Shown here piece by piece: positions 6,371 to 48,617 of a stretch of DNA of 64,000 nucleotides. Positions within the stretch are counted from its first letter, which is position 1. Each line of letters starts with the position of its first letter. Source of the DNA: Escherichia coli (GTDB lineage Bacteria > Pseudomonadota > Gammaproteobacteria > Enterobacterales > Enterobacteriaceae). The stretch lies in the NCBI RefSeq assembly GCF_003018235.1, contig NZ_CP027437.1; one strand, given 5' to 3'. The translations under genes and the position numbers were made by a program. Under the pieces are notes generated by a model. That model saw nothing but the letters and a program-made list of their open reading frames with translations. It did not search any database and was not told the DNA's origin.

Positions 6371-6446
6371 TTTACTGAGAATAAAAACATAAAGTAAAAA
6401 TAGAATGCGCTGAAATTTACTTTATTTCATTTGGATTTTACTTTAA
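6371..6446. promoter_or_regulatory. Putative operator/promoter repeat array upstream of the HTH gene
   Basis: TTTACTTTAT at 6416-6425 and TTTACTTTAA at 6437-6446 (21-bp spacing), an inverted copy ATAAAGTAAA at 6389-6398, and a half-copy TTTACT at 6371-6376 next to the RBS. Confidence 0.35.
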
Positions 6447-14740: not shown

Positions 14741-15106
<366 letters not shown>

Positions 15107-34158: not shown

Positions 34159-35115
34159 TCAGGGAGCTAGTTGCGTGGTATAGTTGGCAGCGACCCAACG
34201 ATAACCCTTGCTGTTGCTTTTAACATGCCCCAGGCCAGGGAATGAGATATGGGCAGCTGCCACCCAGTAACCACCCTGAGCCGCATGTTTTAATACTCGC
34301 TCACGGGTTTTTACCGCTTGCTGTTGATCCACATCGAAATGTATCGCCACGTGAGGATCCGGCATCTGCACTGCTTTGGCATGAATAATATCACCCCACA
34401 ACACTAGCGTCTGGCCTTCACTCTCCACTGTGTACATCACGCTTCCAGGTGTATGGCCGGCCGTTGAGGTGGCCGTAATGTCTGCAAATACCGTTGCCGG
34501 TGCGATAAAGGTTTTCAGCTGACCTGCGTTGATCACTGGGCGGATGGTCTGCTCCGATTCGACAAAGGTGTGCTTCTGACTCTCTTCTACTTTCGAGGCA
34601 TTCGCCGGATTAAGCCAGAAATCCGCATCTTTCTGCTCAACGAATACCTGGGCGTTAGGGAAAGCTGGTTTGCCCTGACGGGAGATGCCACCAGAGTGGT
34701 CGGCATGAATATGCGTCAGCAGCACGGCATCAATGGTTTCAGCCGGATAGCCAGCAGCTGCCAGGTTCTCAAGCAGTTGGCCTCCATTGTTGCCAAACAG
34801 ATCGCCCGCACCGGCATCAATCAACACGCGTTGCTGACCATTATCAATAACAAATGCATTGATTGAAGTCTCCGTATGGGGTGTCAGAGAATCCTTTGCC
34901 AGTTGCTGGCGCAGTTTATCGGCAGGAATGTGGGTGAGTAATTTATCTAGCGGAATTGTCACCGTGCCGTCGGAGACGGCGGTAATACGTAGTTTGCCCA
35001 ATATCATGCGGTAATAGCCCGGTGCTTGTGTATCAGGAGGGGGCACAGGTATAGGCGTTGCTAACGCATTTACGGAGAGTACCAGTGAGGTCACCAGAGT
35101 CAGCAAAAGTTTCAT
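34159..35115 (-). CDS. Secreted metallo-beta-lactamase-fold hydrolase (function unassigned)
   Basis: 318-aa ORF; N-terminal signal peptide MKLLLTLVTSLVLSVNALA; MBL zinc motif THIHADHSGG (HxHxDH); divergent from the LysR-type gene. Confidence 0.8.
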   Translation of the reverse strand: MKLLLTLVTSLVLSVNALATPIPVPPPDTQAPGYYRMILGKLRITAVSDGTVTIPLDKLLTHIPADKLRQQLAKDSLTPHTETSINAFVIDNGQQRVLIDAGAGDLFGNNGGQLLENLAAAGYPAETIDAVLLTHIHADHSGGISRQGKPAFPNAQVFVEQKDADFWLNPANASKVEESQKHTFVESEQTIRPVINAGQLKTFIAPATVFADITATSTAGHTPGSVMYTVESEGQTLVLWGDIIHAKAVQMPDPHVAIHFDVDQQQAVKTRERVLKHAAQGGYWVAAAHISFPGLGHVKSNSKGYRWVAANYTTQLAP

Positions 35116-35196
35116 TCTATCCTCGATAAGTTCTGTTATTACAGTACGGGCACCAGTATCCTTTTGCGGATAACATCATTCAAATTGATTAATATA

Positions 35197-36132
35197 ATGA
35201 ACTCTATCAGAGAAAATGATTTAAACCGGGTCGACCTCAACCTGCTAATCGTGTTCCTGGTGCTACATCGAGAGGGGGAGCGTTTCACGTGCAGCCAACA
35301 AGTTACACTTGGGGCAGCCAGCAGTCAGTGGCGCGCTGGCACGGCTGAGAGAAATGTTTAACGACCCGTTATTTGTGCGCACGGCAAAGGGGATGGCACC
35401 GACACCACGTGCACAAGATCTGGTTACGGCACTACTGCCGGTGATGGATCAAATGCAGCAGGTGATTTTTCAAAGGCCAGTTTTTACCCCAGAACAGGAT
35501 CAGCATACGTTTCGCCTGGGGATGAGTGACTGGGTCGAACGCTGGCTGATGCCTGGAATGATGGCAGATATAGCCCAAATGGCACCCGGGATTCGCTTAC
35601 AAGTCACGGCATCCGATCCTTTCCAGGATGGCGAAAAAGTGCAACAGGATAAGGTGGACGTAGCAATCTCCGTCGTGGAGCAGGTGCCCGCCGGAGTGGA
35701 ACGAGAAGTGATCACTCAAATGGGTTTTTGTACGATGTGGCATCCGCTCCAGTTATCTATCACTTCACCGTTAACCCTTGATGTATATACTGAAACCGAC
35801 CATCTTTTGGTCTCTTATCGCGGTGCAAGCAGTAGCTCTATCGATCTGATTTTGGCTGACTGCGGGCGTGGGAAGTGCGTTACGTCACGCCAAATTTCTC
35901 ATCGTTACCGTTGATGTTGAGACAGATACCGGCTTTAGCGACCGTACCGCAGGGGCTGGCAGAAGGTTGGGTAGCCGATTATGGGTTGCAATTTGCCGAT
36001 GTCCCACTCGAGGTTCCTGCTTTTACGCTCTCTCTACTCTGGAATAAGCGGCGTAATAATGATGAGGCGCTGCGCTGGTTACTAGAGAAATTACGTGCAC
36101 GAATGCAGGGCTGGGAGATGTTTTCAGAATGA
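35197..36132 (+). pseudogene. LysR-family transcriptional regulator interrupted by two frameshifts
   Basis: Three consecutive ORFs carry the pieces of one LysR protein: HTH in frame 1 (35164..35361), substrate-binding domain in frame 2 (35309..35914), C-terminus back in frame 1 (35875..36132); the first shift coincides with a G-run at 35311-35314. Confidence 0.65.
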
Positions 36133-36384
36133 GTTTGAAAACGTAACAATGTGAACAGAAAATAAGGGCTTTCTAAATTAAATAATTCCTGTTGAATATC
36201 ATCGTTAGCGACAACATCATCCACGACTACCAGCAGATTTGCACCGATGGTGGATGTTCAGGTCACGCCAACCTGGCCATGAACCAGAAGGTTATCAATA
36301 CGGGTTAAGAGAATATTGAGTAATGTCATAGTCTTATCTCCTGTTATCCTTGTCGCCTTTCATTTTTCGTTCTTTTGGCGGCAA

Positions 36385-36413
36385 TAAAAAAGGCAGATAA
36401 TTAATTATCTGCC
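36385..36413 (-). terminator. Rho-independent terminator of the PTS/C-S lyase operon
   Basis: Hairpin ggcagataattaattatctgcc followed by a T-run on the minus strand. Confidence 0.55.
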
Positions 36414-36420
36414 CTGTGGT

Positions 36421-37593
36421 TTATGCGATTTTTTGCATCCTTTCTAATGCTTGTTCAAGCCAGTATCTTTGGGTGCCGAAGTTTAAACGTAAGTAGTTTT
36501 CACCGTTTTGCACATAATGGCTGCCATCTTCAATAATGACTCCAGCGTTGCGGGCAAAATGATTGACCCATTCGGTCGCGGAGCGTCCACTTTCACTGAC
36601 ATCAATCCATGCCAGATATGACGATTCTGGTGTCATCATTTTCCATTCAGGAAAATGCGTCTTGAGGGCATCATTAAGCCAGTGGGAGTTATTGCGTAAA
36701 TAGATATTTAATGCATCCAGCCACGGTCTTGCATGCTGATAAGCCAGTGTAATTCCCCAAACGCCAAAAATATTCGGCGAAGTGATTGAGTTCATTTCCA
36801 GTCTCTGGCGAAAACGCTGCCTCAATCCTTTATTCGGAATGACTGAGTAAGATGTTTTCAGTCCCCCTAGGTTAAAGGCTTTATTTGGTGATGTTAGCAG
36901 GACCAGATTATCGTGATCGGCACATCCGGTAGCCAGGCAACTGACAAACTCGCCTTCCAGCAGGTGCTCGGCATGGACTTCATCCACGACCAGAATGACG
37001 CCGTAACGTTTACATAAGTCCGAAACCTGGCGAATCTCATCTGCCGTCCAGATTCGCCCGGAAGGGTTATGTGGAGAGCAGAAAAACCATAGTTTAGGTT
37101 TATGAAGTTTAAGCTGATCTTCAACCAGCGAAAAATCCAGTTGATAACGGTTATCCGCAATGCTTAACGGATTTGCCAGCACTTTAACCCCCTGGCGCTC
37201 TGTTGCCATGGCAAAAGGGTCATAGACTGGCGTATTCATCATGACGCTATCGCCCGGCTGGCAGAACGCCTGAACCATATAGTGCAGCGTTGAGACAGTA
37301 CCATAGGTTAGGGTGATCCAATTCTGCTCGATACTTACGTGGTGACGATCGCGCTGGAAGCCTATCACGGCCTCATAAAACTCATTAAAGGCGTATGTGT
37401 AGCCGAAAGTTCCGTGCTCAACAATCCGTTGAAAACCGTCAATTACCGCTGGTGGCGAAGTAAAATCCATATCAGCGATCCAAAGAGGGATAAAATCTTC
37501 TGCAACCGCACCGAAGCGTGAGCAGACAAACTGATGATCCCATTTGCGGCACTTGTCGCTTTTACGCTCGATAATTCTATCGAAATCGAACAT
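36421..37593 (-). CDS. PLP-dependent C-S lyase (MalY/PatB-family class I/II aminotransferase fold)
   Basis: 390-aa ORF resembling MalY/PatB cystathionine beta-lyases (..LLTSPNKAFNLGGLK.. PLP-lysine region); clearly diverged from K-12 MalY, so a paralogue. Confidence 0.85.
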   Translation of the reverse strand: MFDFDRIIERKSDKCRKWDHQFVCSRFGAVAEDFIPLWIADMDFTSPPAVIDGFQRIVEHGTFGYTYAFNEFYEAVIGFQRDRHHVSIEQNWITLTYGTVSTLHYMVQAFCQPGDSVMMNTPVYDPFAMATERQGVKVLANPLSIADNRYQLDFSLVEDQLKLHKPKLWFFCSPHNPSGRIWTADEIRQVSDLCKRYGVILVVDEVHAEHLLEGEFVSCLATGCADHDNLVLLTSPNKAFNLGGLKTSYSVIPNKGLRQRFRQRLEMNSITSPNIFGVWGITLAYQHARPWLDALNIYLRNNSHWLNDALKTHFPEWKMMTPESSYLAWIDVSESGRSATEWVNHFARNAGVIIEDGSHYVQNGENYLRLNFGTQRYWLEQALERMQKIA

Positions 37594-37605
37594 TTTTAAC
37601 TCCTG

Positions 37606-39177
37606 TTAAATTAAAGCTTCAAGGCCCGTTTTCACACTTTGAACTTGCGGGCCAATAATTACCTGCACACTGTGAGCATCCAGTACAACCACCGACAGGG
37701 CACCTGCATTCTTTAACGTGGCTTGATCCACTTTCGACATATCTTTCACCACCAAACGTAAACGAGTAATACAGTTATCCAGTGAATCAATATTTTCTTT
37801 TCCGCCAAGCGCACTCAAAATCACAGCATGATCATATTTAGATTTGCCTCGTGCTTTTGAATTTGCTGCAACAGCCTGTGCTGCATCCTCAGATGAGTCT
37901 TCACGGCCTGGGGTTTTAATATCATGCTTAAGGATGTACCAACGGAAAACAAAGAAATAAATAGCAAACCAAACAATACCCACCGGAAGTATTAAATACC
38001 ATTTAGTAGAAGTACCCTGCATGATACCAAATATTAATAAATCCAAAATCCCGCCATCAGTATTACCGATAGTCACGCCCAGGATTGCCATAACCATTAA
38101 GGCCAGACCGGACATGATAATATGGAATATATACAACGCAGGAGCAATAAAGAGGAATAAAAACTCAATTGGTTCAGAAATGCCAGTAACAACAGATACT
38201 AATACGCCTGAAAGCAGTAAGCCTTTAATTACAGGACGATTTTCTGGTTTGGCTGTACGATAAATTGCGTAAGCCACAGCAGGCAAACCAAACATAAAGG
38301 TTGGCATAAAGCCTTGGGATAAAAACGCAGTAACATGTGGGCTAAAGGGAAGACCGGCTTTTAATTCTGCATAGAAAATATTGAGTGCTCCGGCAACTTC
38401 ATGACCGTCGACAATTTCTGTACCGCCCGCAGGTGTGAAGCGAACCATTGCAAGCAAGATATGATGTAGCCCGAAAGGCTTAAGCAAAAGCACACCAACG
38501 CCATAAAGGAACGGGCCGAATACGCTGGTACTTTGAATAATGTGGCCAATACCAGCAATACCCATTGCAACATAGGTCCAGAGCAAAGGAATGGCCTGGC
38601 CTACTAATGATAATGTTAGCGAAGTGATGATGGGTACGAAGCGGATACCGCTAAAGAAGGCAAAGGCATCATGTAATACAGTATCCTGAAAACGTTCGTG
38701 GAGAAAATAAGTTATTACCCCGGCGATGATGCCACCTAAAACGCCCATCTCTAAGGTTTGAATACCTAATACTACAGATTGACCAACCTGCTTCATCGTG
38801 GCAGCATCGGCAAGTTGATGGGTAACAGTGAGATAATAATTAATACTCATGTTCATTAGCATATAGCCAACAAAACCTGAATATGCGCCTACTGCTTTAT
38901 TTCTCTTTGCCATTCCTAATGGAATTGCAATAGCAAACATAACAGGTAGATAAGTAAATGCAAAGCCACCTACCATTGCAATAAAGCCAAATGTAAGTTG
39001 GGTAAGCTCACCACCTAAAAAGGGGAAGTTATTAATTGTTGAGGGGCTGGTTACTGAACTACCTATACCTAACAGAAGTCCCATAAAAGCGAGTAATGAT
39101 ACTGGGAACATAAATGTTTTCCCTAAACTTTGGAAAAACTCCCAGACCCGTGACTTTATAGACTTTTCCTGTGTCAT
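37606..39177 (-). CDS. PTS glucose-family EIICB component (MalX/PtsG-like)
   Basis: 523-aa ORF; multi-pass EIIC domain plus C-terminal EIIB domain with phosphorylation-site motif NCITRLRL; co-directional with and 13 bp upstream of the C-S lyase gene. Confidence 0.85.
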   Translation of the reverse strand: MTQEKSIKSRVWEFFQSLGKTFMFPVSLLAFMGLLLGIGSSVTSPSTINNFPFLGGELTQLTFGFIAMVGGFAFTYLPVMFAIAIPLGMAKRNKAVGAYSGFVGYMLMNMSINYYLTVTHQLADAATMKQVGQSVVLGIQTLEMGVLGGIIAGVITYFLHERFQDTVLHDAFAFFSGIRFVPIITSLTLSLVGQAIPLLWTYVAMGIAGIGHIIQSTSVFGPFLYGVGVLLLKPFGLHHILLAMVRFTPAGGTEIVDGHEVAGALNIFYAELKAGLPFSPHVTAFLSQGFMPTFMFGLPAVAYAIYRTAKPENRPVIKGLLLSGVLVSVVTGISEPIEFLFLFIAPALYIFHIIMSGLALMVMAILGVTIGNTDGGILDLLIFGIMQGTSTKWYLILPVGIVWFAIYFFVFRWYILKHDIKTPGREDSSEDAAQAVAANSKARGKSKYDHAVILSALGGKENIDSLDNCITRLRLVVKDMSKVDQATLKNAGALSVVVLDAHSVQVIIGPQVQSVKTGLEALI

Positions 39178-39314
39178 TTAATAGACTCCTTGATTTTTAT
39201 AAGCATAGTTTCAAGGTCATGAAAAAGTAATCATGACCTTTTATATTTGTGAGGTAAGTTGTTTTTTATTGTCTGAATACAGCTGCTAAGAAACTGTTAT
39301 TCACATATTTTTAA

Positions 39315-40184
<870 letters not shown>

Positions 40185-41339
40185 TTATGCCTGCCACGGA
40201 TGAATGATTACGCCTTGCACCACGCGGTTAACGGTGCCACTGGCTGATGGGGTATCCGGCGTATTGCCCATGTGCAGCGACTGCATCAGTGCAAACGTCT
40301 GGGCGTACATCAGGAAGCAAAATGCCTGCTCAACGTCGATAAAGTGACGGGACGGCGGCAGGATGATATGTGGACCGGCGGTAATAACGTCGTTGCTTTC
40401 CGCGGCGATAGCGATTACGCGCATCGCCTGGTTGTCACGACGAAGTTCAGCCAGCAGATCAAGATCATACTGGCGGGTGTAAGGGTGGCTGGAGACAAAT
40501 ACCACCACCAGCGTTTCGTTATCGACCAGCGATTTTGGTCCATGACGGAATCCGGTCGGGGAATCATAAAAGGCCGCCAGTTTACCCGCCGTCAGTTCCA
40601 GTACTTTCAGCGCCGACTCGCGTGCTGCGCCCTGTAAGCCACCGCTGCCGAGATAAACGATCCGTTTCCACGGTGCGTAACCAAACACACCTTCGCTGAA
40701 ATCGCTCAGTGAGGTTAGGATCGCCTGGCAACGATCCGCCACGTCGCGGAAGCTCTGGCTGTTGATCGTCTCAGGTGCGAAAACCGCGAGGCAGCTGGCC
40801 ATCATGGTGGTAATGCTGCTGGTCATCGCAAAGCCGCGATCGTGCGTTTCTGCGGGCATCAGCAGGGCAAACGCGTTGTCGCTGTTGATCGCGTTTTGGT
40901 AAAGAGCGCCCGCTTCGTTGCAGGTGATCGGCAGGTGATAGCACTCGGGTACAAATTGATTTGCCAGTTCCACGGCGGCGACGCTTTCCGGGCTGTTGCC
41001 GGATCGACCGAAGGAGATCAACAGCAGCGGATGAGCTGGATTCAGGTAGTCCATCGGATTGGTGACCAGATCGGTGGTCGGTACGGCGCTGAAGTTTTTA
41101 CCGGTATGGCTGGCGAGCCACGGCGCGATGATGTCACCGATAAATGCCGAGGTTCCGGCTCCGGTCAGGATTACCCGCAGATTCTCTTTGCGCAGTAACG
41201 GTTCAAGGAAGTTATTGAGCGCGGAACGTAGCGCGTCGATGTTGGTGAGTGAACGGATCCATGCGCGAGGCTGATGGCGGATCTCTTCTTCAGTCCATGT
41301 ACCGGTTGCGGCAGCAGCAGGGGTGTAATTTTCTGGCAT
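40185..41339 (-). CDS. agaS: Galactosamine-6-phosphate deaminase/isomerase AgaS (tandem SIS domains)
   Basis: 384-aa ORF MPENYTPAAAATGTWTEEEIRHQPRAW. Confidence 0.93.
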   Translation of the reverse strand: MPENYTPAAAATGTWTEEEIRHQPRAWIRSLTNIDALRSALNNFLEPLLRKENLRVILTGAGTSAFIGDIIAPWLASHTGKNFSAVPTTDLVTNPMDYLNPAHPLLLISFGRSGNSPESVAAVELANQFVPECYHLPITCNEAGALYQNAINSDNAFALLMPAETHDRGFAMTSSITTMMASCLAVFAPETINSQSFRDVADRCQAILTSLSDFSEGVFGYAPWKRIVYLGSGGLQGAARESALKVLELTAGKLAAFYDSPTGFRHGPKSLVDNETLVVVFVSSHPYTRQYDLDLLAELRRDNQAMRVIAIAAESNDVITAGPHIILPPSRHFIDVEQAFCFLMYAQTFALMQSLHMGNTPDTPSASGTVNRVVQGVIIHPWQA

Positions 41340-41379
41340 AACTCAATCCTTAGTCTGATGAACTTGACGTCGGGCGTTG

Positions 41380-41500
41380 TCGCTTTCGCTTACCTTTCGT
41401 TTCATTTCACTTGGTGATGTCTTTCGTTGATTAAAATCTATAGAAAAGAAACTGAAAGTTCAATGGAGAAAAAAGAAATAAAACGAAATTTGTGATCATT
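41380..41500. promoter_or_regulatory. agaS promoter region with AgaR-type operator repeats
   Basis: Clustered CTTTCGTTTC/GAAACGAAA-like half-sites (ctttcgcttacctttcgtttcatttcac, tctttcgttgat, aaaacgaaatttg), same motif family as the kbaZ-agaR spacer. Confidence 0.4.
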
Positions 41501-41556
41501 GAAAGAAAAGACAAGGGAAGATTAAAGGATGGCGTGATGACGTTGCTATGTTCACC

Positions 41557-41615
41557 GATTGCCGGATGCGGCGTACCGTAGGTCAAAGAAGACGCGTCAG
41601 CGTCGCATCCGATAC
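41557..41615. repeat. REP-like palindromic element
   Basis: gccggatgcggcgta ... gacgcgtcagcgtcgcatccg in the agaA-agaS spacer. Confidence 0.4.
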
Positions 41616-41688
41616 CCTGCACAGAGCACAACGAAAGAAAAAGAAAGGCCTTACGGGGGAAGTGAAGGCCCAATAAAGGAGCAAACCA

Positions 41689-42822
41689 TCAAAACGAAGC
41701 TAATTGACCCTGAATCCAGATTTGTTGCACATGCAGCCCGCTATCCAGCGCAACGATGCTGGCGCGTTTGCCCGGTTTAAGCGATCCCAGAACATCATCA
41801 ACACCCAGCATTTGCGCCGGATGCAGCGACGCCATATGGATGGCTTCGGCAGGCGTTACACCCGCCAACTCAACCATGTTGCGCACTGCCGCATCGACAG
41901 ACAGCGTACTGCCCGCCAGCCCACCGGACGCGGTACGGACAACGCCACCGTGCATCTGCACTTCTTCACCACATAACGTATAGCGACCATCCGGCATCCC
42001 GGCTGCCTGCATCGCGTCGGTGATGAGCACGATTCTCTCTTTTGCACAGCAACAACACAGCGACATCGCCGCCGGATGCACATGATGACCATCGGCTATC
42101 AGTTCCAGCCAGGCGCGCTTGTCCGTTAATCCCGCACCAACCATTCCCGGTTCGCGGTGATGTAAACCTGTCATCCCGTTATAGCAATGCACCAGGCCGT
42201 CGGCACCAGCGTCAAACGCGGCACGGGTTTGTTGCCAGGTCGCCGCGCTATGCCCCAGCATCACCCGTACGTTTTGCTGTTTAAGATGGCGGATGGCCTG
42301 CAATGCCCCTTCTTTTTCCGGTGCCAGCGCTACCACGCGCAAGGTGTGCTGAGAAACGGCAATCAACTGATCCAGCTCGGCAATTTCCAGCTCGCGAAAC
42401 AGCTCCGGCGGATGCGCGCCTTTATTCTGCGGCGTGAAGTATGGTCTTTCGAGATAACTCCCCAGCACTTGCGCACCAGGTCCGCCGCGTTGGCAACGTT
42501 GAGCAATACGTTTCAGCGCCGCATGAATGGTATTAAGCGGCGCGGTTACGGTGGTCGGTAACCAACTGCCGACACCTTCGCGTGCCTTGTGCATTGCCAG
42601 CTTGTCGAGCACATCCGGCGCGTCATCCATTACATCAACGCCCGCACCACCGTGTACATGGGTGTCGATGTAAGCGGGGCAGAGCAGTTCCGCATCGCGT
42701 TCAGTCACGCCCACTGGAATCGGTTCGATTGCTGCGATTACACCGTCAGCAATACGCAACTGATGGTCATCGAGCCATCCCTCTTCAGTCAGCAGCCTTC
42801 TGGCGCGCAGAACGTGTGTCAT
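41689..42822 (-). CDS. agaA: N-acetylgalactosamine-6-phosphate deacetylase AgaA (full length)
   Basis: ORF 41689..42843; NagA-like amidohydrolase; start taken as MTHVLRARR (ATG at 42822), which overlaps the agaF stop in an ATGA arrangement; full length here, whereas I recall agaA being truncated in K-12. Confidence 0.88.
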   Translation of the reverse strand: MTHVLRARRLLTEEGWLDDHQLRIADGVIAAIEPIPVGVTERDAELLCPAYIDTHVHGGAGVDVMDDAPDVLDKLAMHKAREGVGSWLPTTVTAPLNTIHAALKRIAQRCQRGGPGAQVLGSYLERPYFTPQNKGAHPPELFRELEIAELDQLIAVSQHTLRVVALAPEKEGALQAIRHLKQQNVRVMLGHSAATWQQTRAAFDAGADGLVHCYNGMTGLHHREPGMVGAGLTDKRAWLELIADGHHVHPAAMSLCCCCAKERIVLITDAMQAAGMPDGRYTLCGEEVQMHGGVVRTASGGLAGSTLSVDAAVRNMVELAGVTPAEAIHMASLHPAQMLGVDDVLGSLKPGKRASIVALDSGLHVQQIWIQGQLASF

Positions 42823-43253
42823 ATTCCTTCCTCGACCGGACATTCTTCATGGCAGCGGCCTAACTCGTCCACCAAACTGGTCAGCCCACGGTGTCCACAC
42901 TCCAGCGCCTGCACACGGAACTCTTCACCGCTTAACCCTTCGCGCTCCAGCACCATCTCCAGTAGCAGTTGCAAATTGGTGCCGGTGATCACTTCACAGC
43001 CCGGTTTTTGCATCGCCAGCGTTGAAGCTACGCGAAACGGCGTGCCGCCCAGCAAATCCGTCAGAAAAACAATGCCGTCTTCACAATCGAGTTGGGCGAT
43101 GGCCTCTTCAAGCTGCGATGTAAGCAGCGCGGTGCTTGAGGTTTCGGGAAAATCGATGGCAATAAACTGCGATTGCTCGCCGAGGATTTGCTTCATTGCT
43201 TTTTCTATGCCACTGGCAAACCCGCCATGCCCTGTCAAAATAATACTTAACAT
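42819..43253 (-). CDS. agaF: PTS EIIA component, mannose family (AgaF)
   Basis: 144-aa ORF MLSIILTGHGGFASG with the EIIA-Man phosphohistidine region. Confidence 0.88.
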   Translation of the reverse strand: MLSIILTGHGGFASGIEKAMKQILGEQSQFIAIDFPETSSTALLTSQLEEAIAQLDCEDGIVFLTDLLGGTPFRVASTLAMQKPGCEVITGTNLQLLLEMVLEREGLSGEEFRVQALECGHRGLTSLVDELGRCHEECPVEEGI

Positions 43254-43270
43254 CTAATACCTCATTGTAT

Positions 43271-44155
43271 TTAAAGGAAATGGCAGAATTTACCGACGAT
43301 GCCGAGAACCACGGTAACTGCAATCAGGCGCAGCGGACTCCAGCCGCGGCGTACCAGCCAGAACATGGTCAGGGTGTAGACCAGCGGTAAGAAGGCTGGC
43401 ATCAGTTTGTCGATAACATCAGCCTGTAACTTAACCACTGCGTCGCCAGCGGTGATTTCCAGCGTGGTGCTTAAACGAACATAGGTTGCCACCAGCGCGC
43501 CGATTACCGTCATCCCAACGATTGACGCAGCATGGCCGACTTTTTGGGTATTCGCTTTAATGAGTGGAATCGCCGCCACGCCCATGCGGTAAGCATAATG
43601 CGCCAGACCAAAACGCAGCCCCAGGTGTACCACGTTGAACAGCACAATAAAGACGACTGCGCCAAGAATAGAGCCTTGTAGCGCGAGGCTTGCGCCTATC
43701 CCGCCACAAATCGGCAGTAGCGTCAGCCAGAACATCGCATCGCCAATCCCGCCGAGCGGCGCACCGACGGCAATTTTGGTGCTCTGAATACTGTTAACGT
43801 CCTGCTTAGAACGCTCCATCGCAAGGATAATGCCGATAACAAACGTCACCAGAAACGGATGGGTATTGAAGAAACCCATATGCCCTTTCATGGCGCGCGC
43901 CAGGTCGCGTTTATTAGTGTGGATCTTTTTCAGAGCAGGCAGCAGACCGTACAACCAGCCGGAAGCCTGCATACGCTCGTAGTTAAAAGACGCTTGTAAC
44001 AGCATGGAACGCCAGGCGACGCGGTTGATATCTTTTTTCGTCAGCTCTGCGCCAATGCTCTGATCTTCATACACGTTTTCATTGACGCCTGTCAGCAGTG
44101 TTTCTTCGTTTTCACTGACGTTCGGCAGGGTGGTTTGATTAGATGCCATCTTCAA
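43271..44155 (-). CDS. agaE: PTS EIID component, mannose family (AgaE)
   Basis: 294-aa membrane ORF; EIID family. Confidence 0.88.
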   Translation of the reverse strand: MKMASNQTTLPNVSENEETLLTGVNENVYEDQSIGAELTKKDINRVAWRSMLLQASFNYERMQASGWLYGLLPALKKIHTNKRDLARAMKGHMGFFNTHPFLVTFVIGIILAMERSKQDVNSIQSTKIAVGAPLGGIGDAMFWLTLLPICGGIGASLALQGSILGAVVFIVLFNVVHLGLRFGLAHYAYRMGVAAIPLIKANTQKVGHAASIVGMTVIGALVATYVRLSTTLEITAGDAVVKLQADVIDKLMPAFLPLVYTLTMFWLVRRGWSPLRLIAVTVVLGIVGKFCHFL

Positions 44156-44918
44156 ATTCCTCTTTCTGTGCCGCAGGTTGAGTCGGTTCAGGAGATTTAC
44201 GCAGCAGATCGATCAGCGCCATCGCCAGCGCGGCGGCAGCAATAGCCAGCACCGGTAACTTGAGCCAGGCTGCGGCAACAAAGCCCAGGATGAAGTAGGG
44301 GATGTAGACGTTTTTCATCATGATTTTCAGCAGCACGGCAAAACCGATTGCTGGCATGATGCCGCCCGCGACGCCGAGGCCGTCGATTAATCGTTGCGGC
44401 AGGACATCAATGATGGTTTTGGCATGTTCTGCGCCGAAGTAGATAGGCAGGAAAGCGCAGAGAAAATAGAAAGTGCCGAGTGCCAGCAGTGCCAGATAGT
44501 TCACGCGTTCAATGCCGCGAGTATCGGCGTTCTCCGCCATCCGGTCGCAGCGGGACATTACGCCAGACATCACCGAGAACAGGAAGGTAATCCCCATCTG
44601 TACTGCGACAGCGAAAGGTACGGCGACACCGACCGCGACATCGGGTTTCACGCCAGTAGTAATGGCAAACGCCGTGCCGACGATAGTACCGATAATCACG
44701 TTAGGCGGTTGTGCGCCTGCCAGCGGGGCCAGCCCCATCCACACCAGTTCCAGCGTACCGCCGGTTAAAATACCGGTATGCAGATCGCCAAGTACCAGCC
44801 CGACTAACGGGCCGAGGACCACCGGGCGGTGCATATGGGTTAAGCCGTTAAACATATCCAGGCCAGCGATAAAGGCGATAATGCCCAACGCGAATGCCTG
44901 CAACAGACTGATTTCCAT
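44139..44918 (-). CDS. agaW: PTS EIIC component, mannose family (AgaW, full length)
   Basis: 259-aa hydrophobic ORF MEISLLQAFALGIIAFIAG. Confidence 0.88.
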   Translation of the reverse strand: MEISLLQAFALGIIAFIAGLDMFNGLTHMHRPVVLGPLVGLVLGDLHTGILTGGTLELVWMGLAPLAGAQPPNVIIGTIVGTAFAITTGVKPDVAVGVAVPFAVAVQMGITFLFSVMSGVMSRCDRMAENADTRGIERVNYLALLALGTFYFLCAFLPIYFGAEHAKTIIDVLPQRLIDGLGVAGGIMPAIGFAVLLKIMMKNVYIPYFILGFVAAAWLKLPVLAIAAAALAMALIDLLRKSPEPTQPAAQKEEFEDGI

Positions 44919-44928
44919 GATGAATCCC

Positions 44929-45402
44929 TCAAAGTAATTTAAAGAGGTCCACAGCAGGCTCTGTCGGGACGCCCTGAACGAAGCATTCCACCCCAGCGGC
45001 TTTCAGGTCGTTAAATGCTGCGATATCGCCCGCATCCACAGAAACCGTTTTGGCGATTTGTTGCTTGCCATTGGCGTAGTGCATATTGCCAACGTTAATG
45101 CGATTCACCGGAACGCCACCTTTCACCAGCGTCAGGAAATCGGCAGGTGTTTTACAAACCAGCAGGATTTTCTGTCGATCGGCGGCGCGATGAATGTTGT
45201 CGATGACTTTTTGCAGCGTCCAGAAACGTACGGCGATCCCTTCTGCCAGTACCATTTCCATCAGGTTTTGTTGTACCGGATCTTCGGCAACCTCATCGTT
45301 GGCTACCAGCACCAGATTTGCCCCCGCAAATCCGACCCACTGAACGCCGACCTGACCGTGAATCAAGCGTTCATCAATCCGGCTTAAAATAATATTTGGC
45401 AT
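44929..45402 (-). CDS. agaV: PTS EIIB component, mannose family (AgaV)
   Basis: ORF 44929..45438; start at MPNIILSRIDERLIHGQVG (EIIB-Man phosphohistidine loop); 157 aa. Confidence 0.88.
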   Translation of the reverse strand: MPNIILSRIDERLIHGQVGVQWVGFAGANLVLVANDEVAEDPVQQNLMEMVLAEGIAVRFWTLQKVIDNIHRAADRQKILLVCKTPADFLTLVKGGVPVNRINVGNMHYANGKQQIAKTVSVDAGDIAAFNDLKAAGVECFVQGVPTEPAVDLFKLL

Positions 45403-45424
45403 AGCGTGTTCCTCTTTGTTTTGC

Positions 45425-46705
45425 TTATTGGCCTTCACAGGCTGTGTGGTACTGCGCCAGGATGTCCTGAATATGGTTGATAATGAGTTCCCGTGGCGTC
45501 GGTTGCAGCTCGCCGGAGCGAACTTTCACGTATTGCAGCGGCAGATACTGGCTGATGAGCGGCAGCGGAATCGGTGAATCCGCCAGATTACGAACCAGAT
45601 GGGCGAAAGCGTCATCAATCTGGCTGTCCGGCCAGTAATAGCGCACGCGATCCGAGTAGCTATAACCACGCGCCAGACGACGCGCGTTGCCGTCACCGTG
45701 GTAGTGGCTTTGCCAGTATTCCGGGCGGTCGAGCATCACGTTTTCCAGCACCTGACGCAGACCGGAACAGGCTTTCGCTGGTACCAGTTCTTCTTCAATC
45801 GCCGCCAGAGAAAAAAGGGCTTCACGCAGGGCGAAGGTCAGCGCCGGGCCAACTTTCAGAATGGCAAAGTGGTCAATCACCAGCTGGCGCAACGATTGCG
45901 GCGTTTGGTAATCGGTAGAGTGCGCTTCGAAAATCAGCGTTTCGTAGTTTTCGACCATCTGGCTTAATGCGGTCGCTTTAGCTGGCTGATAATCAATAAC
46001 GTTGGTGTGATCGAATTCGACGCCGGGTTGAACCACCAGGGCAATAATGCGTGGCCAGATGGCATTCAGGCCCTGCTTTTCAAAGGCGTGGCGATGGGCT
46101 TCCAGTGTGGCGCGGGCGGCATCCGGCGTGGTGACCGCCAGCTCGCTTAAGGTTTCATGCGCGCCGCCAGGTACCGGTACTTCGGTACCAATGACATACT
46201 CCAGATCGGCCGCGCCAAAATGTTCACGGCAGGTTTCTTCCGCCACTTTCGCCAGACGAGCGGCGCGTTCGGCCACGATGTCATCAGTTAAGGGAATCGG
46301 ATCGTCCTGACAGGACATGCTGCAATCAAGGTGAATTTTTTTGAATCCTGCCGCCACGTAGCTTTTAATCAAATCATCGGCATTGGCCATTGCCTGAGCG
46401 GCAGGCAGGTTTTGCCAGCGGTTTGGCCCCAGATGGTCGCCACCCAGAATCAACGCATCCTGTGGGAAATTCAACGAGTCGGCGAGCTGACAAACAAAGC
46501 CGCGAAAATCGGCGGGCGTCATTCCGGTATAACCGCCGAACTGGTCCACCTGATTGGAGGTTGCTTCAATCAGTAACGGTGTTTGGTTTGCACTGGCGTA
46601 GCGGATTGCAGCTTCCAGCACCAGCGGATGTGCGGAACAAACGGCATAAATCCCATTTGTTTTGCCCTCTTTGTGCTGTCTCACCATTTCTGTCAGATGT
46701 TTCAC
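45425..46705 (-). CDS. kbaZ: Tagatose-bisphosphate aldolase accessory subunit KbaZ (AgaZ)
   Basis: 426-aa [40 protein letters not shown]. Confidence 0.93.
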
Positions 46706-46953
46706 TTTCCTCTCCAGTTCAGATTACTGCGATATTAATCTTTCGTTTTGTTTCAGTTGATACTGCGCCATGGTGAGATAAAAATAAAACGAAAGATAAT
46801 AGTTTTCTGATCTGATTCACAAAAGAAACATAATGAAAGCCACTGAAACGAGAGTAGCTTGCGCCAATGGGTAAGGTGGGCTTGCATTTGCTTAATAGAA
46901 AGGCGTTAATAGGCAAAACGAAATGAAACGAAAGTTTTACGAAAGGACTTACT
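46706..46953. promoter_or_regulatory. Divergent kbaZ/agaR promoter region with AgaR (DeoR-type) operator repeats
   Basis: Repeated CTTTCGTTT/AAACGAAAG motifs (ctttcgttttgtttcag, aaaacgaaagataa, aacgaaatgaaacgaaagttttacgaaagg). Confidence 0.5.
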
Positions 46954-47763
46954 ATGAGTAATACCGACGCTTCAGGCGAGAAGCGAGTGACAGGCACCAG
47001 TGAGCGACGAGAGCAGATCATTCAACGCCTGCGCCAGCAAGGAAGTGTGCAGGTTAACGATCTGTCGGCATTGTATGGCGTATCTACTGTGACGATCCGC
47101 AACGATCTGGCGTTTCTGGAAAAGCAGGGGATCGCTGTGCGTGCCTATGGCGGCGCGTTGATCTGCGATAGCACGACGCCGTCAGTCGAGCCATCAGTGG
47201 AAGATAAAAGCGCGCTGAACACCGCAATGAAACGCAGCGTTGCGAAAGCTGCCGTTGAGTTGATTCAGCCAGGTCATCGGGTAATCCTCGATTCCGGGAC
47301 CACCACTTTTGAGATTGCTCGTCTGATGCGCAAGCACACTGACGTAATTGCGATGACCAACGGTATGAACGTGGCTAATGCGTTGCTGGAAGCGGAAGGC
47401 GTTGAGCTGCTGATGACCGGCGGGCATTTGCGCCGTCAGTCGCAATCTTTTTACGGCGATCAGGCTGAACAATCGCTGCAAAATTACCACTTCGATATGC
47501 TGTTTCTTGGCGTAGATGCGATCGATCTGGAGCGCGGCGTCAGCACGCATAATGAAGATGAAGCCCGTTTAAACCGTCGGATGTGCGAAGTTGCGGAACG
47601 GATCATCGTGGTCACCGATTCCAGTAAGTTCAATCGTTCCAGTTTACATAAGATCATTGATACTCAACGTATCGACATGATCATTGTTGATGAAGGCATT
47701 CCTGCGGATAGTCTGGAAGGACTGCGAAAGGCTGGGGTTGAAGTGATTCTGGTCGGGGAGTGA
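46954..47763 (+). CDS. agaR: DeoR-family repressor AgaR
   Basis: 269-aa ORF; N-terminal HTH ([35 protein letters not shown]) and DeoR C-terminal sensor domain. Confidence 0.93.
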
Positions 47764-47817: not shown

Positions 47818-48282
47818 TCAATGGGTTTCTTCTGTCTCTCGGGTGAGGGTTTCCCAGTCGGCAGGAGGATGTCCTCTTTTTAACATTTTGCTGAATACGG
47901 TATAGGCATCTGTTTTTTTACCGTAGGTGCGCAGAGTGTTTTCATCGTTCATCCATCCCAGAATGATGACTTTCTCTTTTTCACTATAACGAAAGAAGAG
48001 ACGATAACGACCAGCACCAAATTTTACCCGTGACCAGTCTTTATTTTTCCCAGAGCCTAACGACTTGCCATGACGGAATGCCGGTGATGATGGATTGACC
48101 GTGATATGCTCCTCAATCACTTTATGGACTACCGCCAATAACTTTGTGGCGGCTTTTCTCTGATAATTTTCAGGATCTTTTCCCTTTAATATCTCGACTT
48201 CGGCAACTAAAGCGTCGTAGGTTTCCTGAAAACAGGGATGAGCATATAGCGCCCAACCATTAACCCTTTGTGGAAAATCCAT
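47818..48282 (-). CDS. yhaV: Type II toxin YhaV (ribosome-dependent mRNA interferase)
   Basis: 154-aa ORF MDFPQRVNGWALYAHPCFQETYDALVAEVE; stop/start overlap with prlF. Confidence 0.93.
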   Translation of the reverse strand: MDFPQRVNGWALYAHPCFQETYDALVAEVEILKGKDPENYQRKAATKLLAVVHKVIEEHITVNPSSPAFRHGKSLGSGKNKDWSRVKFGAGRYRLFFRYSEKEKVIILGWMNDENTLRTYGKKTDAYTVFSKMLKRGHPPADWETLTRETEETH

Positions 48283-48617
48283 TATTCGTCGTCGCCAATC
48301 TCATCATCAATGTTGACGTCCAGGCCAGCGACCAGTTTCTTTCCTTGCTGAATGTTGAATGGACGAGTTTTTTGCGGGTTGTTCTGGATATCTGCATCCA
48401 GAAAACGCAAAAATGCATTCATGGTATGATCCTCCTGTTCATCTCCCAGTCGGCACATAAATACTTGCCCACCAGGCAGAATTTCGTAATGAATGCTGTC
48501 CTGGCCTGGCTTCAGTTTTAAGGCCTCACGCACTGGCGCGGGGATAGTTGTTTGTCCGCGTATCGTGACCTTTGATTCAGTGGTCAGTACAGCGTGAGAG
48601 CGAGCATTAGCGGGCAT
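48282..48617 (-). CDS. prlF: Type II antitoxin PrlF (SohA), AbrB/SpoVT-fold
   Basis: 111-aa ORF MPANARSHAVLTTESKVTIRGQTTIPAPVREAL with acidic C-terminus. Confidence 0.93.
   Translation of the reverse strand: MPANARSHAVLTTESKVTIRGQTTIPAPVREALKLKPGQDSIHYEILPGGQVFMCRLGDEQEDHTMNAFLRFLDADIQNNPQKTRPFNIQQGKKLVAGLDVNIDDEIGDDE

Follow-up and report, generated by a model that had tools for sequence, protein, structure and literature searches.

Between the divergent kbaZ and agaR genes of this Escherichia coli strain, a CTTTC-type motif is repeated several times within 248 bp, and the same motif returns upstream of agaS. This raises the question of what the copies are for, which of them are genuine protein-binding sites, and how such sites are disposed with respect to the promoters of the locus. 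In the text below, the window designates the whole stretch of DNA analysed, 64 kb in length, and all positions refer to it. The conserved copies belong to boxes that can be identified with high confidence, from their sequence and context, as operators for AgaR, which belongs to the DeoR/GlpR family and represses the aga/gam regulon of Escherichia. The motif reading is thus correct but already known, as the AgaR system was characterised in 2004 and comparatively re-analysed in 2012. What may be considered mildly new is a conservation-backed map of the sites, the invariant spacing of the modules they form and an AgaR-box-like terminator tract.

The aga/gam cluster in the window

The aga/gam cluster of Escherichia is carried by the window in reversed orientation compared with K-12 (Table 1). 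Of 5426 complete E. coli genomes, 5333 contain a match to an 8-kb query covering the cluster, with up to 99.1% identity. The agaR product reaches 465 bits against the NCBIfam equivalog NF040755 AgaR (cut-off 260) and 577 bits against NF007316, and it shares 100% amino acid identity with K-12 AgaR. Directly downstream of agaR, synteny with annotated E. coli genomes places the yhaV-prlF toxin-antitoxin pair and garD (47818-48617).

In gene content, the window strain differs from K-12 in two opposite ways, namely an intact agaW-agaE-agaF-agaA segment that was lost in K-12, and the lack of agaBCDI, in the place of which malX/malY-like genes are found. Indeed, agaB-agaC-agaD-agaI, usually located downstream of kbaY, are absent from 34159-39177 (compare loci L001, 2279-5146, and L083), and such a replacement occurs in only 30 of the 5426 complete E. 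coli genomes, O145:H28 strains included. Judging from the genes present, the GalN-specific PTS should be missing from a strain devoid of agaBCDI, and the malX-like genes might be expressed by read-through from the AgaR-controlled promoter PS. In the 137-bp gap separating kbaY from the malX-like gene, a perfect 10-bp hairpin (AAGGTCATGA...TCATGACCTT, 39213-39240) is terminator-like on the + strand only, since it is not followed by a T-run on the coding (-) strand.

Table 1. Window coordinates of the genes, motif copies, conserved boxes and putative promoter elements of the aga/gam locus (for motif copies, first position and strand).
Feature	Position	Strand	Sequence	Remarks
agaR	46954-47763	+		DeoR/GlpR-family repressor gene; labelled agaR in the closest annotated E. 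coli genome
kbaZ	45425-46705	-		Heads the kbaZ-agaVWEFA operon; transcribed away from agaR; NCBIfam NF012002 KbaZ, 898 bits; synteny
agaV/W/E/F	42819-45438	-		
agaA	41689-42843	-		NCBIfam: NagA-type deacetylase in the cluster
agaS	40185-41339	-		First gene of the PS operon; NCBIfam TIGR02815 agaS_fam, 632 bits
kbaY	39315-40172	-		
malX-like PTS IIBC gene	37606-39177	-		In place of agaBCDI
MalY/PatB C-S lyase gene	36421-37593	-		In place of agaBCDI
LysR-regulator fragments	35309-35914 and 35875-36132			No full-length ORF; in place of agaBCDI
MBL-fold hydrolase gene	34159-35115	-		In place of agaBCDI
kbaZ-agaR spacer	46706-46953			248 bp, GC 0.37
Exact 8-mer copies in spacer	46741 (+), 46787 (-), 46916 (-), 46926 (-)		TTTCGTTT	
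Full 9-mer copies in spacer	46740 (+), 46787 (-), 46926 (-)		CTTTCGTTT	Three of the four TTTCGTTT copies
Motif copy upstream of agaS	41394	+	CTTTCGTTT	Exact
Motif copy upstream of agaS	41481	-	ATTTCGTTT	
One-mismatch copy upstream of agaS	41383-41391	+	CTTTCGCTT	Flanks S1; Escherichia-specific, low conservation; present in K-12
One-mismatch copy upstream of agaS	41421-41429	+	CTTTCGTTG	Flanks S1; Escherichia-specific, low conservation; present in K-12
RZ1	46915-46934	-	CTTTCGTTTCATTTCGTTTT	Over the putative PR start region; at least 95% conserved at most positions, 74 spacers
RZ2	46896-46905	-	TAGAAAGGCG	Single conserved CTTTC (46898-46902); between putative PR -35 and -10
RZ3	46820-46839	-	CTTTCATTATGTTTCTTTTG	Conserved; adjoins the CRP-like site on its upstream side
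CRP-like site	46806-46821	-	TGTGAATCAGATCAGA	TGTGA-N6-TCAGA; between RZ4 and RZ3
RZ4	46776-46795	-	CTTTCGTTTTATTTTTATCT	Conserved; covers the putative PZ -35 region
RZ5	46740-46759	+	CTTTCGTTTTGTTTCAGTTG	Conserved at 46739-46756; inverted relative to RZ1, RZ3 and RZ4; over the putative PZ start
S1	41394-41413	+	CTTTCGTTTCATTTCACTTG	Conserved; inverted relative to agaS; downstream of the putative PS start
S2	41439-41458	-	CTTTCAGTTTCTTTTCTATA	In conserved block 41433-41463; fills the putative PS -35/-10 spacer
S3	41470-41489	-	ATTTCGTTTTATTTCTTTTT	Conserved; upstream of the putative PS -35
Motif copy in linker	46846-46854	-	CTCTCGTTT	In variable linker; Escherichia-specific; column conservation 0.1-0.4; K-12 copy identical
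Putative agaR promoter PR	46882-46910	+		TTGCAT (46882-46887, conserved), 17-nt spacer, GTTAAT (46905-46910); start near 46917
Putative PZ -10	46757-46762	-	TATCAA	Start near 46750; CRP-like site then near -63
Conserved block	46759-46766			Explained only as the putative PZ -10
Putative agaS promoter PS	41435-41463	-		TTGAAC (41458-41463), 17-nt spacer, TAGATT (41435-41440); start near 41428
agaR Shine-Dalgarno	46941-46947	+	GAAAGGA	6 nt separate it from the ATG at 46954; low conservation as a motif
agaA terminator	41628-41671	-	CTTTCTTTTTCTTTCGTTGT	Hairpin 41646-41671, then the tract given (41628-41647), which resembles an AgaR box

Occurrence of the motif

The original prediction counted at least four copies of the motif, in both orientations, in the kbaZ-agaR spacer, and noticed its recurrence upstream of agaS between 41380 and 41500; both observations hold. 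The exact TTTCGTTT occurs eight times in the window, of which four lie in the spacer (one on the + and three on the - strand) and two upstream of agaS, on either strand. Shuffling the whole window yields 3.55 +/- 1.62 copies and never eight in 100 shuffles, while composition-matched dinucleotide shuffles of the spacer contain 0.05 copy on average and two at most, so that the observed four are reached in none of 5000. With the degenerate form TTTC[GA]TTT, the two richest 250-bp segments of the 64 kb are the spacer and the agaS-upstream region, and the boxes come up again, as direct and inverted repeats, with an independent generic repeat finder.

Conserved boxes and their spacing

It had also been anticipated that the number and phasing of the sites could be mapped from the sequence, which was achieved by aligning spacers and agaS leaders across genera. 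A scan of 100,044 species genomes provided 80 loci encoding AgaR at 81-99% identity, spanning Escherichia to Yersinia, Serratia, Mixta and Cedecea, and in 76 of them, as in the window, kbaZ and agaR are divergent, giving 77 sequences in all. The alignment set, which covers Enterobacterales with AgaR at 81% identity or above, comprises 74 distinct spacers (median identity to the window 70%) and 72 agaS leaders. Though overall identity is only about 70%, the spacer measures 245-252 bp in 74 of the 77 sequences, and the variation in length is confined to an unconserved linker and the two gene-proximal ends.

Four conserved 20-bp boxes (RZ1, RZ3, RZ4, RZ5) and a single CTTTC (RZ2) emerge from the spacer alignment, together with three conserved boxes upstream of agaS (S1, S2, S3). 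A 20-bp box is made of two direct 10-bp units, [C/A]TTTC-N5 then [A/G]TTTC-N5, as exemplified by CTTTCGTTTC followed by ATTTCGTTTT, and the unit of function appears to be this box of about 20 bp and not the 9-mer. The majority-base frequency averages 0.93 in the boxes vs. 0.66 in the rest of the spacer (74 spacers; Mann-Whitney p = 5e-16). Between RZ4 and RZ3, the CRP-like site retains nine of the ten core positions of TGTGA-N6-TCACA and is itself conserved, with a majority-base frequency of 0.94 over the 74 spacers.

Position weight matrices (PWMs) trained on one region ranked the boxes of the other region first in the remaining ~63.6 kb, a test free of circularity for the recurrence of the motif. 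RZ4 is the top match of the PWM trained on the agaS boxes only, with RZ3 among the top matches, while S3 and S1 are respectively the best and second-best matches of the PWM trained on the agaR-kbaZ boxes only; S2 is the weakest fit to the box model (PWM 18.3). The boxes were further compared with the 24-nt string WRMMTTTCRTTTYRTTTYNYTTKK, which we take to be the AgaR consensus of Ray & Larson and EcoCyc. At three mismatches or fewer, it has six matches vs. 0.14 expected, five of the six in the two regions; the two zero-mismatch matches both fall there, on RZ1 (46914-46937) and S1 (41391-41414), and S3 (41469-41492), RZ3 and RZ5 show one, two and three mismatches, respectively. A full-text literature search for the consensus string and the box sequence yielded nothing useful. 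Elsewhere in the window, PWM or consensus matches at 6411-6434, 14807-14826 and 36357-36376 stand alone, have much lower scores than the boxes and were treated as chance.

The distances between these elements are remarkably constant within each promoter region. In the PZ module, RZ4-CRP, CRP-RZ3 and RZ4-RZ3 measure 18, 26 and 44 bp in 74 of 74 spacers and RZ5-RZ4 measures 55 bp in 68 of 74; in the PR module, TTGCAT lies 20 bp from RZ2 in all 74 and RZ2 lies 32 bp from RZ1 in 72; upstream of agaS, S2 stands at fixed distances from the PS -10 and -35 in 70 of 70 sequences. Between the PR and PZ modules, the anchors of the linker (46840-46877) are 39-46 bp apart depending on the genus, a difference of up to 7 bp. 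The sites are therefore arranged as rigid promoter-level modules and not as one phased array, and a loop joining the PR and PZ modules in strict phase, which was also considered, is unsupported with such a linker.

Copies outside the conserved boxes

Not every visible copy needs to be an operator. A reasonably probable refinement of the main explanation is that some copies are operators and others serve different roles, as the agaR ribosome-binding site, the agaA terminator U-tract or Escherichia-specific copies; about one third of the visible copies are probably not operators. Conservation across genera is low for the copies at 46846-46854, 41383-41391 and 41421-41429. These lineage-specific copies are nonetheless intact in K-12 and could fall inside published footprints. 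The CTCTCGTTT copy at 46846-46854 is at best a doubtful operator candidate. At the agaR end of the spacer, the CTTTC at 46941-46945 is accounted for as the reverse complement of the Shine-Dalgarno sequence GAAAGGA, which ends 6 nt before the agaR ATG.

Downstream of agaA, the CTTTC copies at 41633 and 41643 are part of the U-tract of a terminator that presents the features of rho-independent termination, i.e. a GC-rich hairpin, an adjoining U-tract and compensatory changes in the stem. In the predicted fold, the hairpin at 41646-41671 is directly followed by UUUCUUUUUCUUUC. Across 53 orthologous sequences, the stem covaries (GGCCTT/AAGGCC, GGTTTG/CAAACC, GTCTG/CAGAC) and the tract is nearly fixed. 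A simple terminator scan missed this terminator, probably because it accepts loops of 3-8 nt only. The fit to a plain U-tract is not perfect, in that the C positions of the tract CTTTCTTTTCCTTTC are kept in those 53 sequences while the hairpin sequence drifts, i.e. they are more conserved than a generic U-tract requires. Besides, CTTTCTTTTTCTTTCGTTGT is the best PWM match outside the training boxes (18.7 and 17.8), and the tract lies about 100 bp upstream of S3 in most genera. That the tract CTTTCTTTT(C/T)CTTTCG following the agaA hairpin would serve both as a U-tract and as a fourth, distal operator for AgaR is conceivable, albeit rather unlikely.

The agaA-agaS interval holds other elements. 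A REP-like palindromic element, with arms CGGATGCGGCG and CGTCGCATCCG, occupies 41540-41620; its content in the window is not that of K-12, and most other genera lack it, their agaA-agaS spacers being about 45 bp shorter. In most non-Escherichia genera (loci L006-L082), a conserved CTTTC-type CCCTTTCATTGTG is present within the first ~15 nt directly after the agaA stop codon; this copy is missing in the window and in Escherichia sp. L005.

AgaR as the binding protein

The original prediction of a multi-operator, DeoR-type AgaR system controlling three promoters is supported by the identity of AgaR, the orthology with K-12 and the literature, where it was already established. AgaR operators at PR, PZ (kbaZ/agaZ) and PS of K-12 are attributed to Ray & Larson (2004, Mol Microbiol 51:813) in later publications (PMC3668189, PMC4694137, PMC8667592). 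The binding of AgaR at PR, PZ and PS, the repression of these promoters and their induction by GalNAc/GalN were demonstrated by others (PMC3668189, PMC4694137), with GalNAc inducing PZ 5-fold and PS 20-fold (PMC3668189; PMC4694137). Deletion of agaR renders agaA and agaS constitutive (PMC3668189), and loss-of-function agaR mutations lead to higher expression of the Aga PTS (PMC9628945). What the present analysis establishes is the identity with K-12, the non-random occurrence, the conservation across genera and the fixed spacing.

K-12 possesses the same locus and the same repressor, and all conserved boxes are identical base for base. In the agaR-kbaZ region of K-12 MG1655, 276 of 281 positions are identical to the window, with no indels and none of the five substitutions in a motif copy, and three positions differ in the agaS-proximal ~180 bp. 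As the mapping is ungapped, a window position w corresponds to the MG1655 coordinate 3325619 - w in the spacer and 3323315 - w in 41340-41520. In MG1655, this places RZ1 at 3278685-3278704, RZ3 at 3278780-3278799, the CRP-like site at 3278798-3278813, RZ4 at 3278824-3278843, RZ5 at 3278860-3278879, S3 at 3281826-3281845, S2 at 3281857-3281876 and S1 at 3281902-3281921. One box can be related directly to an experimental site, since the AgaR site from PkbaZ used in vivo by Guharajan et al. (2021; PMC8667592 Table S3), printed as CTTTCGTTTCATTTTCGTTT, maps to RZ1, for which both the window and K-12 read CTTTCGTTTCATTTCGTTTT. The two strings differ by one T/C transposition, probably a misprint, or else an artefact of PDF reading.

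Binding of the boxes by some other factor, be it another sugar regulator, a nucleoid protein preferring T-tracts or RNA polymerase through UP-element contacts, is very unlikely. Curved DNA and the sites of nucleoid proteins typically contain phased T/A-rich tracts such as these, but the conserved positions include specific C and G bases beyond the T-runs, the boxes co-occur with agaR orthologues in 77 of the 77 loci having a kbaZ-agaR spacer, and published work assigns the binding to AgaR, with one box used as an AgaR site in vivo (PMC3668189, PMC8667592).

The approach followed here, in which AgaR sites are deduced from what is conserved ahead of aga genes in many genomes, shares its principle with that of Leyn et al. 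(2012, J Biol Chem 287:28047), who are reported to have reconstructed the AgaR regulon comparatively in Proteobacteria (cited in PMC4694137). The name AgaR is also borne by regulators of streptococci, i.e. AgaR1/AgaR2 of Streptococcus and AgaR of S. pneumoniae, which likewise repress GalNAc/GalN genes (PMC4694137, PMC5018945). In contrast with the system of the window, to which they are not homologous, these proteins belong to the GntR family and not to the DeoR family, and they recognise different, palindromic sites (PMC4694137).

Promoters and proposed mechanism

Upstream of all three genes, the boxes overlap conserved -35/-10-like hexamers, which are putative and match the consensus weakly. 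A sigma-70 consensus scan returned no promoter on the expected strand in the spacer and none upstream of agaS at the scan threshold. The only two calls in the spacer, both on the + strand (46757-46785 and 46773-46800), were rejected; their TTGATA becomes TTTAAT in most genera, and it is better read as the PZ -10 on the - strand. Read from the sequence, both PR hexamers fall within conserved blocks and both PS hexamers are conserved. For PZ, a class II arrangement is an alternative, in which the -10 would be TATTTT (46781-46786) and CRP would lie near -40. We infer from the sequence the promoter hexamers and start sites, as well as the occlusion and the competition with CRP described below.

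In the PR module, RZ2 would separate the -35 from the -10 and RZ1 would cover the start, so that bound AgaR would repress agaR itself (autorepression). The PZ module would present, in order, RZ5 over the start or the -10, RZ4 over the -35 region, the CRP site and RZ3, where AgaR would block RNA polymerase and probably hinder CRP; PZ reportedly needs cAMP-CRP. The same logic would apply to PS, with S3 (-42 to -61 relative to the putative PS start) located before the -35, S2 (-11 to -30) occupying the interval from the -35 to the -10, and S1 (+15 to +34) past the start. With these start sites, the start-proximal box at PR, PZ and PS would in each case be antisense to transcription. Growth on GalNAc or GalN would relieve the repression.

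In E. coli, the operators of GlpR (glp regulon) and DeoR (deo operon) also number several per promoter region and overlap the promoter core; these regulators bind as oligomers and are associated with cAMP-CRP co-regulation. Cooperative or looped oligomer binding is expected in the DeoR/GlpR family, and an AgaR oligomer may bind in either manner. Although the family is the same, the GlpR and DeoR operators are palindromic and unrelated in sequence to the AgaR box, which is a direct repeat of 10-bp units.

The disposition of some boxes as inverted pairs could also evoke hairpins in the 5' leader of the RNA instead of DNA operators, RZ4 and RZ5 forming a 16-nt inverted repeat (94%, 28 nt between the arms) and S1 and S3 a 14-nt one (93%). 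Such a role is barely credible, for with the putative starts only one arm of each pair would be transcribed, no partner arm exists for RZ1 and RZ3, which are direct-repeat boxes, and the box sequence is conserved without compensatory change. Moreover, a permissive Rfam scan of 41000-47200 gave no family match at E <= 1, which excludes a known RNA element as the explanation. As for the copies being mere products of chance in AT-rich, T-tract-rich intergenic DNA without specific function, as the GC of the spacer (0.37) and the 207 occurrences of the short core CTTTC in the window could suggest, this is effectively refuted by the shuffles (the TTTCGTTT count being reached in 0/5000) and by the conservation of boxes at ~0.93 across genera with spacers only ~70% identical, the same 20-mers being moreover found at a second promoter.

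Concluding remarks

The region can be labelled with confidence as AgaR-controlled PR/PZ/PS regulatory DNA, which has little significance beyond annotation. The gain is modest and consists in a base-level map of the operators, including coordinates, orientation, invariant module spacing and likely non-operator copies, which is transferable to K-12. Such a map could guide the mutagenesis of operators or help in building synthetic circuits with AgaR boxes, as was done in PMC8667592. If AgaR did act on the terminator tract, the end of the kbaZ operon could be bridged to PS, via looping or via a roadblock reinforcing termination. In that case, the base-pair-invariant PZ, PR and PS modules found across Enterobacterales would reflect a fixed higher-order complex of AgaR, CRP and promoter.
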